This document shows, piece by piece, positions 34,264 through 59,907 of a stretch of 64,000 bases of DNA (position 1 is the stretch's first letter; each line of letters begins with the position of its first letter). A program made the position numbers and the translations under genes. Where the stretch lies: contig NZ_JBPPGI010000006.1 in NCBI RefSeq assembly GCF_051594785.1, forward strand, positions 90,827-154,826, given 5' to 3'. Under the pieces are notes generated by a model. It did no database searches. It saw only the letters and a list, made by a program, of their open reading frames with translations, and was not told the origin of the DNA. Origin of the DNA: Gorillibacterium sp. sgz500922 (GTDB lineage: Bacteria > Bacillota > Bacilli > Paenibacillales > NBRC-103111).

Positions 34264-35439
34264 TTATGCCGAGACGGCGATCCCTTGCTTCCATTCCCGC
34301 CGGACGCAGGAGATGACCCGCGCCTGCTCCTCTTCCGTGAGCGAGGAGCCGGAGGGCAGGCAGATGCCCTGGCCGAACAGGGTCTCGCAGAAGCTCGCGC
34401 CGGGCAGGTGCGGGTAATAGGCGGCCCCGGCAAAGAGCGGCTGCAGGTGCAGCGGCTTCCAGACCGGGCGCGCCTCGATGTTCTGCTCGGCGAAGGCGGC
34501 GAGCAGCTCCGCCGGGTTCACCCCAGCCTCCGCCGGGTTCACGGTCATGACCGTGAGCCAGCGGTTGGACCGGCTGCCCGCCGGCTCCGGCATGAAGGAA
34601 ACGCCGGGCAGATCGCCAAGCTCGCTCTCGTAGGCGGAGAAAATCAGCCTTCTCGCCCGAACGCGGTCCTCCAGCACCTCGAGCTGCGCCCGGCCGATGC
34701 CCGCGAGCACGTTGCTCATGCGGTAATTGAAGCCCATCTCGCTGTGCTGGTAATGGGGAGCGGGGTCGCGCGCCTGGGTCGCCAGAAACCGGGCCTTCTC
34801 CAGAGCGCCGGTATCGTCGGAGACGAGCATGCCTCCGCCCGAGGTGGTGATGATCTTGTTGCCGTTGAAGGAGTAGACGCCGAATCGGCCGAACGTGCCG
34901 CTCGCCCGTCCCTGGTAGGTCGAGCCCAGGGACTCGGCGGCGTCCTCGATGATCGGCACTCCGTAGCGCTCGCACAGCGCCGCGATCTCCTCCATCTTCG
35001 CGCTCTGCCCGTACAGGTTGACCACGATGACCGCCTTCGGCAGCGCTCCCTCGCGCTCCGCGTCGGCGAACGCCCGCTCCAGCGCCTGCGGCGACATGTT
35101 CCAGGTATCCGGCTCGGAGTCGATGAACACCGGCTCGGCCCCCTGGTACCGGATCGGATTGGCGCTGGCGATAAAGGTGAAGCTGGAGCAGAACACCTTG
35201 TCCCCCGGTCCGGCTCCGATGAGGCGGAGGGCCAGATGGATGGCAGCCGTGCCGGAGGAGACGGCGGCGGCGCCGCGGGTCCCCACCTTCTCCGCCAGCT
35301 CCCGCTCGAAAGCGTCGACATTCGGGCCGAGCGGCGCGATCCAGTTGGTATCGAAGGCTTCGTGGATATAGGTCAGTTCATTGCCGCTCATATGCGGCGG
35401 CGACAGGAAAATACGGCTGCCGGTGGCGATGCTAGGCAT
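34264..35439 (-). CDS. DegT/DnrJ/EryC1/StrS family sugar aminotransferase (EpsN/perosamine-synthetase-like)
   Basis: PLP aminotransferase motifs; strong RBS GGAGGG; last gene of the EPS operon. Confidence 0.8.
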   Translation of the reverse strand: MPSIATGSRIFLSPPHMSGNELTYIHEAFDTNWIAPLGPNVDAFERELAEKVGTRGAAAVSSGTAAIHLALRLIGAGPGDKVFCSSFTFIASANPIRYQGAEPVFIDSEPDTWNMSPQALERAFADAEREGALPKAVIVVNLYGQSAKMEEIAALCERYGVPIIEDAAESLGSTYQGRASGTFGRFGVYSFNGNKIITTSGGGMLVSDDTGALEKARFLATQARDPAPHYQHSEMGFNYRMSNVLAGIGRAQLEVLEDRVRARRLIFSAYESELGDLPGVSFMPEPAGSRSNRWLTVMTVNPAEAGVNPAELLAAFAEQNIEARPVWKPLHLQPLFAGAAYYPHLPGASFCETLFGQGICLPSGSSLTEEEQARVISCVRREWKQGIAVSA

Positions 35440-36145
35440 ACAATCCCTCCATTCGAAATAGCGGCCTCACGACCGGAATGTCCCGCAGCTCCTGCAAGCG
35501 GGCGATGCGGTAATGCGCTTGATGGCCGGGAGCCAAAACGGCTCCCGCCGCGCTGTAAAGGCCGTCGCCCCGGTCGATGTGCACGGTGGTCCAGCCGAGC
35601 CGGTTGGCGGTCACGAAGTCTTTGGCCGGGTTATCCCCGATATACAGGCAGCGGCGGTGGGGCACCTGCAGCAGGTCGCTCGCCGCCTCGTACGGAACCG
35701 GGCTGGGCTTCCAATGGCTGCGGCCGAACAGGTCCGTAAGAATCACCGCCTGCATCCGTTCGCGGAGCCGGAGCGCCTGAACCTTGCGCTCCTGGGTTTC
35801 CACGTAACCGTCGGTAATCAGGCCGAGCTTGACCCGGCCCTCCAGCCGCTCGAGCACCCATTCGGCGTCCGGCAGCAGGGTGAGGATGGGGCGATGCTCC
35901 CGGTAGCAGGCGACGCAGTCGGCGATCAGCCGGTCGTCGTAGGGGAGGCCGAGCCGCTCGAGGGTCCGGTTGAACAGCCGGCTCTTGTCCTGCCCCTGGT
36001 AGAGGAGAGCGGCGGTCTCGAAGAACCGCTCCTCTCCGCAGAGTCCGCGCAGGTACTCGCCGACCGCGCGGAAGCCGCTCAGCGCGTACTGCTTCTCGGA
36101 AATTAGCGTGTCGTCCAAGTCGAAGACCACGGCTTGAATGTCCAT
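35432..36145 (-). CDS. HAD-IA family hydrolase
   Basis: MDIQAVVFDLDDTL (motif I DxD). Confidence 0.7.
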   Translation of the reverse strand: MDIQAVVFDLDDTLISEKQYALSGFRAVGEYLRGLCGEERFFETAALLYQGQDKSRLFNRTLERLGLPYDDRLIADCVACYREHRPILTLLPDAEWVLERLEGRVKLGLITDGYVETQERKVQALRLRERMQAVILTDLFGRSHWKPSPVPYEAASDLLQVPHRRCLYIGDNPAKDFVTANRLGWTTVHIDRGDGLYSAAGAVLAPGHQAHYRIARLQELRDIPVVRPLFRMEGLYA

Positions 36146-36149
36146 AGGC

Positions 36150-58013: not shown

Positions 58014-58544
58014 AACCCCTTCGAAGCCGATCCCAGGCGGCGCCCGGCGAAAGACATCAGGCTCGCGTAAACGCAGAGTGCGCCCGAAATGACGAAGATC
58101 GGACGCACTTGCGGTTCGCTTGCTTACCTGTGCGGTTTCCAGGGAGGAATCCGCACAAGTAAAGAAACGAAACCGCAGGCTTCGCCGCCGCTTGAGGAGC
58201 AGGCCGCGCGGGCGGGCCGCGCGCAAGGCGCGCGGAGCCGGCAATCGCGGCAGTCGCCTTAAGCGATGGGCGGCGAACATTCGGTTTCAATCGTAATCCG
58301 GGGCATCCAACCCCGCCTCACGCCACACCCTCGACGACCCGCGTCTAAGGTCCTGCGACCCACAGCATGACCGAGTGCCTCCATTGATATCGGCCAGGAG
58401 ACATCGCCGCAGCTTGGGTTCATCCGGCTAATGACCGGAAATCCGTCCACTGTTGTTCGCTATGTAAATCATTATCGTTCTTAATATAGAACAGCGAGGC
58501 AAAAGGAAAGCCCTCCGTATCGTCGGCGGGAGAGCCGGGCGAGG
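58014..58544 (-). ncRNA. About 530 nt of structured non-coding spacer between the BY-kinase and capD-like genes (candidate EAR-type anti-termination RNA or internal promoter)
   Basis: No credible ORF. Hairpins visible include TGTGCGGattcctccctggaaaCCGCACA. The position is equivalent to the epsB-epsC spacer that carries the EAR element in Bacillus. Confidence 0.35.
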
Positions 58545-59204
58545 CTACTTCTCGTTGAGCACCGTACCGAGCAGCGTGGCCCCGGCGAACTCCAGGGTCA
58601 TCTTGGCGTTCAGCGCCGCATCTTCCTTGGTCCGGCCCTGTTCCAGGACCAACAACACGGCGTCGCTGCAATGCGCCAAAGACTTGACCTCGAAGGCTTC
58701 CAGCACCGAGGGAGCATCGATGAGGACCATATCGTAGTGGCTGCCCAGCGTGTCCATGATGCCGGTCAGGACTCCATCGTCCAGGAGATCGTTGGCTCCG
58801 AAGCCGTAGGTACCGGCCGGCATGACGTCCAGCTCGCCGATCTCGGTCGGATGAACCGTATCCTTCAGCTCCTTGCGGCCGGACAGGACATCGGACAATC
58901 CGGGCTGTCTCTCCATGCCGAGCAGCTTGGTGATTCCCGGACGGCGGACATTCGCGTCCACCACCAGCACCTTGCTGCCCTTCACCGCCATCGAGGAAGC
59001 CAGGTTCATGACCAGCGTGGTCTTCCCTTCCCCGCCCTCGGGCGAAGTGACAAGAAGCGACTTCTTCTTCTGGCTTTCAAACAGCAGGCGAATATTGGCG
59101 CGGATGCTGCGGAATTGCTCGGAAGCGCGCGCGGCGGGCTGCAGGTAGCTGATCAGACTCCGCCGGGCGGGGAGACTGGATGCGACCGCTTCGTTAAGAT
59201 TCAA
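58545..59204 (-). CDS. BY-kinase (tyrosine-protein kinase, CapB/EpsB/YwqD-like ATPase)
   Basis: Walker A (SPEGGEGKTT), Walker A' and Walker B. TTG start after GAGGAGGGAG; overlaps the modulator gene by 11 nt. Confidence 0.8.
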   Translation of the reverse strand: MNLNEAVASSLPARRSLISYLQPAARASEQFRSIRANIRLLFESQKKKSLLVTSPEGGEGKTTLVMNLASSMAVKGSKVLVVDANVRRPGITKLLGMERQPGLSDVLSGRKELKDTVHPTEIGELDVMPAGTYGFGANDLLDDGVLTGIMDTLGSHYDMVLIDAPSVLEAFEVKSLAHCSDAVLLVLEQGRTKEDAALNAKMTLEFAGATLLGTVLNEK

Positions 59205-59907
59205 CGCTCTCCCTCCTCGTGAGTTGAATTCGCTGATGGGTCTTGGCGCGGAACTTCACCTTTCGAATGCGGGACACTTGCCCGAGCACCGGCAGGCCAA
59301 GCACTTCCTTCGCCCGCTTCTCCGAGCGGATCGCTTCGTCGAGGGTATCGCGGAGGAAGGCGGCTCCGATGCCCAGCACCAAGCCGGCGATGAGGCCGAT
59401 GAGGATCATCCGGTTTTGCTCCGGCGGATTGATCGGCTGTGGCGAACCGTCCTTCTTGGCTTCGGATAAAATGGTCACGTCGCTGAAGTTCAGGAGCGTG
59501 CCGATGGTCGCCTTGTATTGCTTCACGGTGGAGTTGGCGATAGCCGCGGCGAGCGGCTGGCTGCGGTCGGTAACGGTGACCAGCACCACCTGGGTGTTGT
59601 CGACGCTGGAGACCGAAATCTGGCTCCGCAGAGCGGAGACGGAGCGGTCGAGCGAGAGTTCATCCGCTACCTTTTGCAGGACGACGGGCTCCTTGAGAAC
59701 CACCTTGAGCGTATTGATGAAATCGGTATTCGAATGGATGATGATGCGGGCCGTCGCCTGATACAGCGGTGCATGCGGCCTGTTGGCATAGTAGGCGCCA
59801 AGCCCGGTGCCCAACAGAGTAACGAGCGACAGGATCAGCCAGCGCCTGCGCAGGGCGAGCAGAAGGTCACGGATGTTGATCTCTCGGGGGATACGCATAT
59901 TGTCCAT
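59194..59907 (-). CDS. Polysaccharide chain-length determinant / BY-kinase transmembrane modulator (Wzz/CapA/EpsA-like)
   Basis: The start MDNMRIPREI follows CAGGAGAAT; two TM helices flank a periplasmic domain; first gene of the EPS operon. Confidence 0.75.
   Translation of the reverse strand: MDNMRIPREINIRDLLLALRRRWLILSLVTLLGTGLGAYYANRPHAPLYQATARIIIHSNTDFINTLKVVLKEPVVLQKVADELSLDRSVSALRSQISVSSVDNTQVVLVTVTDRSQPLAAAIANSTVKQYKATIGTLLNFSDVTILSEAKKDGSPQPINPPEQNRMILIGLIAGLVLGIGAAFLRDTLDEAIRSEKRAKEVLGLPVLGQVSRIRKVKFRAKTHQRIQLTRRESVES

Follow-up and report, generated by a model that had tools for sequence, protein, structure and literature searches.

The biofilm eps operon of Bacillus subtilis, epsA-O, has 15 genes and encodes no phosphatase (PMC4117945). 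Its products EpsC, EpsN and EpsM make UDP-diNAcBac (diNAcBac, N,N'-diacetylbacillosamine), and the small phosphoglycosyl transferase (PGT) EpsL puts diNAcBac in place as first sugar (PMC10653937). UDP-yelosamine of B. cereus ATCC 14579 arises when an ATP-grasp enzyme encoded beside the small PGT Q814Z7 transfers a 2-oxoglutarate moiety (PMC11626204), and this work is set in the BC5263-BC5279 polysaccharide cluster (eps1; PMC4595770). Neisseria PglB2 has an ATP-grasp domain in the place of the acetyltransferase domain and makes a glyceramido sugar instead of diNAcBac (PMC11130364). In this work, we describe a minus-strand gene array at positions 34264-59907 of a 64,000-nucleotide stretch of the soil bacterium Gorillibacterium sp. 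sgz500922 (contig NZ_JBPPGI010000006.1), the whole of which is called the window hereafter. The array is very likely a single exopolysaccharide (EPS) operon of the epsA-O type, with 24 genes, an eps-associated RNA (EAR), Wzx/Wzy-dependent assembly and the pathway proposed below.

As judged from its sequence, the operon is real but largely ordinary, of a known kind (epsA-O or B. cereus eps1-type Wzx/Wzy) and lineage-typical in content. The earlier note on this DNA had called the content unusual; for the lineage it is not, and the gene order returns in over 20 genomes of Paenibacillus, Cohnella and Gorillibacterium. The closest species, Gorillibacterium timonense and Gorillibacterium sp. CAU 1737, match the order at 65-86% identity, and the relatives with conserved gene order are eps-type, none being identified as paenan. 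Database entries of strain sgz500922 itself match g12 and g18 at 100% identity. The single odd feature is an embedded enzyme that normally belongs to a lasso-peptide cluster, such a cluster lying alongside. As an EPS operon, this is one more member of the epsA-O/eps1 family; what our analysis adds is the EAR with the other transcription signals, an account of the ATP-grasp, HAD and aminotransferase trio as a Pyl-type system, a tail-less EpsB-like clade, and a psmN-type gene beside a lasso cluster devoid of psmN.

Gene content and transcription of the eps operon

The open reading frames (ORFs) of the window were annotated by Pfam and NCBIfam profile searches. The genes of the array are listed below from 5' to 3' (aa, amino acids; GT, glycosyltransferase; BY-kinase, bacterial tyrosine kinase).

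59194-59907 (-): g1, EpsA/Wzz-type chain-length modulator, 237 aa (PF02706 E=1.4e-8; TIGR01006 E=5.6e-35)
58545-59204 (-): g2, EpsB-like P-loop ATPase of the BY-kinase family, 219 aa (TIGR01007, 132.8 bits, cut-off 108)
56122-57957 (-): g3, EpsC/PglF/CapD-type membrane-anchored UDP-GlcNAc 4,6-dehydratase, 611 aa (PF02719 E=1e-122; PF13727)
54973-56109 (-): g4, GT4 glycosyltransferase in the EpsD position (PF00534 E=2.1e-37)
53913-54971 (-): g5, GT2 glycosyltransferase (PF00535 E=5.1e-35)
52781-53884 (-): g6, GT4 glycosyltransferase (PF13692/PF00534)
51802-52722 (-): g7, GT2 glycosyltransferase (PF00535 E=8e-22)
50720-51796 (-): g8, EpsG-family (Wzy-like) polymerase (PF14897 E=3.6e-53; 8 hydrophobic segments)
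49958-50701 (-): g9, GT32-like DXD glycosyltransferase, Gly_transf_sug (PF04488 E=2.4e-15)
48702-49928 (-): g10, GT4 glycosyltransferase, paralog of g15 and g16 (39% identity to each)
48113-48718 (-): g11, small monotopic PGT of the EpsL/PglC type, 201 aa (PF02397 E=1.5e-61)
46846-48048 (-): g12, PsmN-type protein of nucleotidyltransferase fold (PF14907, 200.5 bits, cut-off 31.2)
45786-46844 (-): g13, GT2 glycosyltransferase (46% identity to g5 in the N-terminal 227 aa)
44629-45789 (-): g14, polysaccharide pyruvyl transferase (PF04230 E=4.8e-34)
43411-44601 (-): g15, GT4 glycosyltransferase (Pfam; pairwise comparison)
42179-43378 (-): g16, GT4 glycosyltransferase, tandem paralog of g15 (56% identity)
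40902-42182 (-): g17, membrane-anchored GH88/GH105-like (alpha/alpha)6 protein (PF07470 E=2.5e-23; PDB GH105/GH88 matches; N-terminal hydrophobic helix)
39968-40963 (-): g18, GINT1_N/GH43-like beta-propeller protein (PF24793 E=2.5e-52)
38393-39955 (-): g19, putative Wzx/EpsK-type flippase, polytopic, 520 aa (weak NF041503 WZX_like match, E=2e-6, 27 bits)
37344-38393 (-): g20, UDP-glucose 4-epimerase GalE (TIGR01179 equivalog, 456.8 bits, cut-off 262)
37155-37307 (-): conserved 50-aa ORF (90% identical in two other Gorillibacterium species)
36150-37139 (-): g21, Pyl-like ATP-grasp ligase (PF21360, PylC_N; PF02655, ATP-grasp_3; NF009405, 336 bits)
35432-36145 (-): g22, HAD-family hydrolase (PF13419; 48% identical to the B. 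luti HAD protein)
34264-35439 (-): g23, DegT/EpsN/Pat-type sugar 4-aminotransferase (PF01041 E=1.2e-100; 68% identical to the B. luti DegT protein)

ORF and composition analysis shows a tightly packed, co-directional array, in which all coding-type ORFs of 34264-59907 lie on the minus strand and have a third-position GC content of 0.79-0.91 (the window has a GC content of ~0.63). Neighboring genes overlap or are separated by at most 64 bp, save in two places: g2 and g3 lie 587 bp apart, with an RNA element in between, and galE and the ATP-grasp gene lie 204 bp apart. No credible ORF or small gene was found in the 587-bp gap when one was looked for. The 204-bp interval holds the 50-aa ORF, MYDLGKLSQDDLLAIMLDVSRKGEESQDWGVREAIEELKRQIIHSTRLDG, which leaves gaps of only 36 and 15 bp. 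A Pfam search with this product gave no match, but we accept it as the 24th gene, since its 90% identity exceeds the 71-83% of the flanking enzymes and the gene is also called in a near-identical contig (L001, Logan contig SRR11972212_381). The co-directional array of the earlier note is therefore real, but 27 genes was too high a count: there are 23 large genes (g1-g23) and one small ORF. Distant copies of the 50-aa ORF are found near GalE-PGT-DegT in some Bacillus loci.

The profile searches agreed with the reading of these genes as a polysaccharide-biosynthesis operon, moving no ORF off that theme except the PF14907 gene, for which the one characterized relative tailors a lasso peptide. They also returned the domains named in the earlier note (Wzz, CapD, EpsG, Bac_transf, PS_pyruv_trans, PF14907, GalE, ATP-grasp, HAD and DegT) and gave its two embedded hydrolase-like proteins a family, GH88/105-like for g17 and GINT1_N/GH43-like for g18.

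The operon can be set beside B. subtilis epsA-O. Both operons have an EpsA/EpsB-like pair at the 5' end, an EAR between genes 2 and 3, an EpsC-type dehydratase followed by GT4, GT2 and GT4 enzymes, an EpsG polymerase, an EpsL-type PGT, an EpsN-type aminotransferase, a pyruvyl transferase and a flippase-like membrane protein, as well as a SinR-family regulator nearby and no phosphatase within the operon. The operon of the window differs from the 15-gene epsA-O in its 24 genes, among them a GT32-like enzyme, three paralogous GT4s, the GH88/105-like and GINT1_N-like proteins, GalE and the PsmN-type PF14907 protein. It also differs in having an ATP-grasp and a HAD gene instead of the EpsM acetyltransferase gene, and in an EpsB-like protein that lacks the tyrosine cluster of the Y225/Y227 type and carries DxN instead of DxD.

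The transcription signals and the neighboring regulator gene, none of which the earlier note mentions, are the following.

60007-60345 (-): SinR/SlrR-family helix-turn-helix regulator, 112 aa (PF01381 E=4.7e-17; weak SinI domain match; best NCBIfam match NF046032 SlrR, E=2.2e-22)
59945-59973 (-): sigma-A-type promoter, TTGACA-17 nt-TATAAT, a 12/12 consensus match, just upstream of the g1 start at 59907
58300-58409 (-): EAR/epsC RNA (RF01735), a processive-antitermination element (full-length model match, Rfam 105.5 bits against a gathering score of 42)
34188-34238 (bidirectional): intrinsic terminator with a 13-bp GC-rich stem and A-run and T-run flanks, after the DegT stop, shared with the convergent gene 33148-34173

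In a consensus scan, the eps promoter was the sole minus-strand promoter-like site within 33-64 kb. The minus strand within the operon contained no internal consensus promoter, and promoter-like sites there were not above shuffled controls. Terminator-like sites inside the operon were at chance level as well (11 versus 9.0 expected, and 14 versus 12.3, in shuffled controls), and the only strong terminator of the operon is the one after DegT. The EAR lies in the g2-g3 gap, between the EpsB-like and EpsC-like genes, and that of B. subtilis is likewise placed between the second and third eps genes (PMC10653937). Tight spacing, promoter, EAR and terminator support, without proving, one long transcription unit, and a single unit, as the earlier note had it, is most likely on these signals.

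Internal termination sites were considered as targets of the EAR, and none could be named, terminator-like matches being at chance level. Among 14 related loci scanned for the EAR, it was undetected in 12, several of which start at or after capD and are hence uninformative. It was confirmed, upstream of CapD, in L008 and L037, and L044 and L064 are true negatives.

The SinR/SlrR-like gene ends 34 bp before the -35 box of the eps promoter, on the same strand as the operon, and overlaps the 3' end of the lasso ABC gene by ~20 nt. The promoter spacer, between the -35 and -10 boxes, contains an operator-like inverted repeat, GTTCGCTATTAAGAAC (GTTCGCT/GTTCTTA), each half of which is one mismatch from the SinR box. 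SinR-like genes also lie between eps and lasso clusters in six Bacillus loci (L012, L050, L054, L057, L061 and L066). Taken together, these data allow only the reasonable suggestion of a SinR-type control of the eps promoter. Exact SinR boxes (GTTCTYT) were rejected as evidence for such control, as there are 7 in the window against 10.7 expected and 0 in the eps promoter.

Repeat-unit synthesis and assembly

EpsC-, EpsN- and EpsL-type genes are all present in the operon (PF02719 with TDK...Mx3K, PF01041 and PF02397). The dehydratase g3 has an N-terminal membrane domain and the motif STDK...MGAAK, which fits the PglF/WbpM pattern TDKxnMx3K (PMC8987622). This PglF-type motif, together with a PglE-like aminotransferase and a PglC-like PGT, recalls the pgl system of Campylobacter jejuni (PglF/E/D/C) and its logic of a 4-amino-2,4,6-trideoxyhexose priming sugar. 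Unlike pgl, the operon has neither a PglD acetyltransferase nor an oligosaccharyltransferase, and polymerization is assigned to Wzy/EpsG. In fact, no EpsM/PglD-type hexapeptide or acetyltransferase domain was found among the 24 products in the Pfam and NCBIfam searches. The ATP-grasp and HAD genes precede DegT in place of the EpsM acetyltransferase gene.

The same replacement is seen in Bacillus luti, in which the gene order PGT, ATP-grasp, HAD, DegT puts the ATP-grasp/HAD pair in the place that EpsM has in B. subtilis. These four proteins are 66, 60, 48 and 68% identical to those of the window, the first value being that of g11. The cassette is found in the B. cereus group, and it is a feature shared with the eps1 cluster BC5263-BC5279 of ATCC 14579, as represented by the B. 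luti copy. In the window, unlike eps1, the PGT and the trio are 11 genes apart. The ATP-grasp family of g21 is widespread in Bacillales at 55-65% identity, and one member, the 559-aa P0072, is a natural fusion of a Pyl-like ATP-grasp with a HAD hydrolase, which argues that the two act together on one substrate. PglB2 of Neisseria meningitidis offers a parallel, with an ATP-grasp module in place of the acetyltransferase that makes diNAcBac and a 4-N-acyl variant of the priming sugar. It differs in that its ATP-grasp is fused to the PGT and serves a Gram-negative protein O-glycosylation, and its likeness to g21 is drawn from function, not from sequence.

The earlier note suggested an aminoacylated or amidated amino-sugar. 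An N-acylated 4-amino-sugar, with g21 as the candidate enzyme acting on the UDP-4-amino sugar, is supported by the Pyl-type cassette, but the acyl group is probably 2-oxoglutarate rather than an amino acid, given the homology to the Pat/Pyl system of B. cereus. The operon would thus be a clear example of diversification of the priming sugar, in which an ATP-grasp and a HAD protein replace the acetyltransferase.

The second gene, g2, was described as a BY-kinase. It does belong to the TIGR01007 family and has Walker A (GEGKTT) and Walker B (VLIDAP) motifs, but its Walker A' reads D-A-N-V-R, so that the second catalytic Asp is replaced by Asn and the DxDxR pattern is broken. Its C-terminus (...LLGTVLNEK) has no tyrosine in the last 60 residues. 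BY-kinases autophosphorylate on 2-7 tyrosines clustered at the C-terminus; in B. subtilis EpsB, Y225/Y227 carry the phosphate, and a D81A/D83A mutant is kinase-dead (PMC4117945). The g2 orthologues that precede CapD in six genomes (L008, L014, L037, L044, L064 and L082) have D-A-N-x-R and no tyrosine cluster, the first Asp being replaced as well in L082 (G-N-L-R). A second BY-kinase subtype, found in other loci, has mostly D-A-D-L-R and one or two tail tyrosines. The g2 clade probably represents, as far as motifs tell, an ATPase co-polymerase partner without autophosphorylation, and as such bears on how universal tyrosine autophosphorylation is in Gram-positive Wzy-dependent assembly.

The earlier note also remarked on the absence of a phosphatase partner, and indeed neither a PHP- nor an LMW-PTP-type phosphatase turned up among the operon genes or the window's other ORFs that were scanned. 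Such absence is the norm for eps-type operons, and in B. subtilis mutants of tyrosine-phosphatase homologues have no biofilm defect (PMC4117945). In the g2 clade it has an explanation: with no tyrosine tail and one catalytic Asp lost, there would be no autophosphorylation to reverse.

The operon encodes nine glycosyltransferases (five GT4, three GT2 and one GT32-like), not ten as counted before; the three GT2 and the GT32-like enzyme stand, and the GT4 enzymes are five instead of six. The GT4 trio with KKKLLF..GGAEKSL N-termini consists of three real paralogs (KK(K/R)LLF...GG(A/G)EKSL), but only g15 and g16 are adjacent (56% identity), g10 lying four genes upstream (39%). The supposed near-duplicate pair of GT2 genes does not hold, g5 and g13 being just 46% identical over 227 residues. 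The pyruvyl transferase g14 (PS_pyruv_trans) makes pyruvylation plausible, in agreement with the polymer predicted earlier.

The flippase is the weakest call of the operon. It was previously given as Wzx, and its ~14-16 hydrophobic segments and operon position fit that role, but g19 had no Pfam match even at E=10 and only the 27-bit WZX_like match in NCBIfam; hence it is called a putative flippase here. It is 35% identical to a 519-aa protein of the B. luti eps locus. Upstream of it, g17 keeps its position in most related operons (GT4, GT4, GH88, flippase) and is probably a polymer-processing enzyme of a kind common in EPS loci. The gene g18, from a family (PF24793) widespread across phyla, is strain-variable: 1076 bp here (39956-41031) correspond to 131 bp (7053-7183) in L001, a contig 97.7% identical. 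The 1076 bp comprise g18 and the 3' end of g17, so that the indel alters the C-terminus of the GH88-like protein.

Based on our data, we propose the following pathway. Transcription would start at the consensus sigma-A promoter, probably under repression by the adjacent SinR/SlrR-like protein, and the EAR would make RNA polymerase resistant to termination, so that a 25.7-kb unit is read through to the one strong terminator. UDP-4-amino-4,6-dideoxy-HexNAc (HexNAc, N-acetylhexosamine) would be made by g3 and g23, the DegT protein g23 aminating C4. Its 4-amino group would be acylated by the Pyl-like g21 with g22, most likely with 2-oxoglutarate, no EpsM/PglD being present. The small PGT g11 would move the acylated sugar-phosphate onto undecaprenyl phosphate, and nine glycosyltransferases would extend the repeat unit, with UDP-Gal from GalE among the donors. 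A pyruvate ketal would be added by g14, and the unit would be flipped by the putative Wzx g19 and polymerized by the EpsG protein g8, while the EpsA/EpsB-like pair would modulate assembly with no autophosphorylation on tyrosine. Trimming or processing of the polymer may fall to the membrane-anchored g17 and, in this strain, also to g18. The PsmN-type g12 may add a further decoration, probably phosphodiester-linked, or alternatively act on the neighboring lasso peptide. The polymer would plausibly carry pyruvate as well as a 4-amino-sugar on which the ATP-grasp enzyme has placed an N-acyl group.

Several points weigh against this account, and some of them lead to rival explanations. The flippase assignment is weak, g19 having no Pfam match, and SinR control rests on adjacency and on an operator-like repeat with one mismatch per half-site. 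The promoter scan covered sigma-70-type consensus sites only, and internal promoters may exist; the array might then be two or more units, for example one of wzz with the kinase gene, one running from capD to galE, and one formed by the ATP-grasp/HAD/DegT trio. The gaps of 587 and 204 bp, a weak terminator-like hairpin downstream of the EAR (58186-58166, without a good U-tract) and the location of the trio in other genomes, directly after the PGT, speak for such a division. We consider it improbable: the wider gap holds the EAR, whose role is described as transcription read-through (reference 6 of PMC10653937), the narrower one is filled by the 50-aa ORF up to 36 and 15 bp, no consensus promoter was found on the minus strand inside the operon, terminator-like matches there are at chance level, and the sole strong terminator follows DegT. 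The product could also be a capsule or wall-linked polymer instead of free EPS. Hwang et al., in 2014, reportedly placed a related B. cereus sugar in a wall-associated polysaccharide. The BC5263-BC5279 proteins are filed under "cell wall" in PMC4595770. Such a cell-wall-associated or capsular glycopolymer is quite unlikely here, as the Pfam and NCBIfam searches found no LCP/LytR-type ligase or sortase-like gene in the operon, and its architecture, EAR and SinR-like neighbor match the B. subtilis biofilm eps operon.

The nature of the acyl group is a further point of dispute. The donor of g21 is predicted at 60% identity to the B. cereus-group orthologue, not from the characterized Pyl of ATCC 14579 itself; orthology to the latter would rest on the B. 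cereus-group cassette and on PMC11626204. ATP-grasp specificity can shift at such a distance, and simple 2-oxoglutarate ligation does not account for a conserved, sometimes fused, HAD partner such as g22. The pair might attach another group, either an amino acid or glycerate from phosphoglycerate, with the HAD protein as phosphatase. The glyceramido sugar of Neisseria PglB2 (PMC11130364) and the weak similarity of g22 to phosphoglycolate and sugar phosphatases (NCBIfam) are in line with the glycerate version. We take this to be rather unlikely, because the whole PGT/ATP-grasp/HAD/DegT cassette is common to the window and the B. cereus group, so that the HAD protein also belongs to a system whose ATP-grasp was shown to use 2-oxoglutarate. 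Moreover, no amino-acid-ligase family (Ddl, RimK or LysX) matched g21 better than E=1e-5 in the NCBIfam search.

The PsmN-type gene and the neighboring lasso cluster

PsmN is needed for the phosphorylated C-terminal serine of pseudomycoidin, a lasso peptide of Bacillus pseudomycoides, to receive one or two hexoses, and is inactivated by D134A/D136A; its gene normally lies between psmB2 and psmD, and lasso clusters without N, such as that of paeninodin, are normal (PMC6993621). The product of g12 shares 53% identity with the PF14907 protein encoded in the B. luti lasso cluster, which there follows the eps genes, and ~51-53% with those of psmN-like genes of the B. cereus group. By homology, the B. 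luti gene corresponds to psmN of the pseudomycoidin cluster and g12 is a PsmN homologue. The earlier note had the family right (PF14907) and missed this identity with a lasso-tailoring enzyme.

Residues D135 and D137 of g12, which correspond to the DxD metal site D134/D136 of PsmN, are invariant across 56 and 83 homologues. Since all family-invariant residues are retained, we rejected the reading of g12 as a decaying relic. Its predicted fold is that of a Pol-beta/ANT(2'')-like nucleotidyltransferase, and a PDB sequence search with it gave no match at E<=1. To our knowledge, no structure of a PsmN-family enzyme has been solved, and the chemistry of the family is not known. The resemblance of g12 to PsmN thus extends over PF14907, the DxD motif and the predicted fold; it differs in its place between the PGT g11 and the GT2 g13 of a polysaccharide operon, not between lasso B2 and D genes, and in belonging to a separate clade of eps-embedded homologues.

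The lasso genes of the window lie directly upstream of the SinR-like gene.

60326-63916, continuing past 64000 (-): lasso-peptide cluster of the kinase type, 3' part
62975-63916 (-): K, HPr-kinase-like
62688-62936 (-): B1, PqqD
62155-62631 (-): B2, transglutaminase-core
~60326-62158 (-): D, ABC exporter

Here B2 adjoins D with no psmN between them, and g12 is the only PsmN homologue of the window. The cyclase (C) and precursor (A) genes would lie outside the 64-kb window. A lasso cluster with HPr-kinase-like, PqqD, transglutaminase-core and ABC genes also adjoins the eps genes in B. cereus eps1. The arrangement in the window differs from it in that the lasso cluster is upstream instead of downstream, and psmN is inside the eps operon instead of in the lasso cluster.

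This association was surveyed by scanning one genome per species with g12, which gave 80 loci, or 82 with L001 and L002 added. The loci were thus chosen by similarity to g12, and they were classified by tblastn with the eps and lasso proteins of the window. In 57 of the 82 loci, the PF14907 gene (N) is part of a lasso cluster with the genes C, K, B1, B2, N and D. Leaving GalE aside, eps homologues occur within 10 kb in 45 of these lasso-type loci, and three or more of them in 34. In 24 of the 82, from Gorillibacterium, many Paenibacillus and Cohnella, N lies inside an eps operon and lasso genes are absent within 10 kb. The genes around it typically run ...EpsG, GT32, PGT, (DegT), N, (GT4), GT2, Pyr, GT4, GT4, GH88, flippase, GalE. 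These eps-embedded N proteins form their own clade or clades in a neighbor-joining tree, which, with no lasso genes nearby, suggests an eps-linked function.

In genomes of the Bacillus cereus group, of Peribacillus and Metabacillus, and of Paenibacillus and Cohnella, the lasso clusters that contain psmN repeatedly abut, split or sit within eps-type operons. The lasso cluster of the B. cereus group follows the eps end made up of PGT-(ATP-grasp-HAD)-DegT; some Bacillus loci and those of Peribacillus have it before Wzz, the kinase-like gene and CapD, with the EAR confirmed in L008 and L037; and in several Paenibacillus loci it separates Wzz/kinase from the second half of eps. In L026, a metagenome-assembled genome, it is found in the middle of the eps operon, at the place of the lone N of 24 other loci. 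The linkage and the eps-fixed PsmN clade are notable. Within the incomplete coverage of our literature search, we found no earlier report of either; the lasso-peptide literature searched never mentioned exopolysaccharide, and only a context of phosphonate biosynthesis turned up for PF14907.

It may be asked whether g12 simply serves the lasso peptide. Under this explanation, g12 would be the tailoring enzyme of the upstream cluster, with the PsmN function of placing hexose on the C-terminal phospho-serine, and would be merely relocated or co-expressed with eps for the sake of nucleotide sugars. PsmN is needed for hexosylation of phosphorylated pseudomycoidin and has its normal place between psmB2 and psmD (PMC6993621), and the cluster of the window has K, B1, B2 and D intact with nothing between B2 and D. 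Additionally, g12 is the sole PsmN homologue in the window, at 53% identity and with the catalytic DxD of PsmN conserved, and in L026 a complete lasso cluster occupies the very place that the lone N has in other eps operons. We hold this to be possible, if somewhat unlikely. The 24 loci in which N stays in an eps operon and lasso genes are absent within 10 kb, and its separate clade(s) in the tree, argue against it, as does the normality of N-less lasso clusters such as that of paeninodin (PMC6993621); moreover, the C and A genes of the neighboring cluster, beyond the window, were not seen.

The reading in which g12 decorates the polymer keeps our preference, and both the conserved PsmN clade fixed in polysaccharide operons and the lasso clusters that repeatedly abut or interrupt eps operons point to a role of the PsmN family in sugar or phosphate transfer. 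As a lead, this comparative finding is more useful than the EPS operon itself. A broader proposal, which we put forward with low confidence, is that the eps operon and the kinase-type lasso cluster form a functional supercluster in many Bacillales. The PsmN-family enzyme would then be a shared transferase of the phospho-glycosyl type, either decorating the EPS repeat unit through a phosphodiester or loading the lasso peptide, at its phosphorylated C-terminus, with an eps-derived sugar or glycan. This peptide would be matrix-associated, possibly polysaccharide-linked, and not a free antibiotic, and the tail-less DxN EpsB-like clade would represent a variant of the BY-kinase co-polymerase that is an ATPase but no kinase.

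Other features of the window and of related loci

Two riboswitches were seen in related loci. A c-di-GMP-II (cyclic di-GMP) riboswitch is found in L073 at 19978-20061 (+), just downstream of the eps-type operon of Cohnella sp. OV330, and a SAM (S-adenosylmethionine) riboswitch in L037 at 2693-2806 (-), upstream of the lasso cluster of Bacillus sp. AFS073361.

The window has two stretches of lower GC content (~0.55-0.56), at 32000-34200 and 16000-18000. The former holds the gene convergent to the operon, at 33148-34173 (+), which encodes a 341-aa protein with a Cu_amine_oxidN1 domain. No coding-type ORF was detected at 16840-18210. An unrelated sugar-utilization locus occupies 1476-16838 (-). 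It includes two GH65 phosphorylases and a HAD gene placed like that of a beta-phosphoglucomutase. A Cache histidine kinase with its AraC-type response regulator is also encoded there, as are two permeases with an ABC sugar-binding protein, and a 924-aa protein that has an F5/8-type-C domain.

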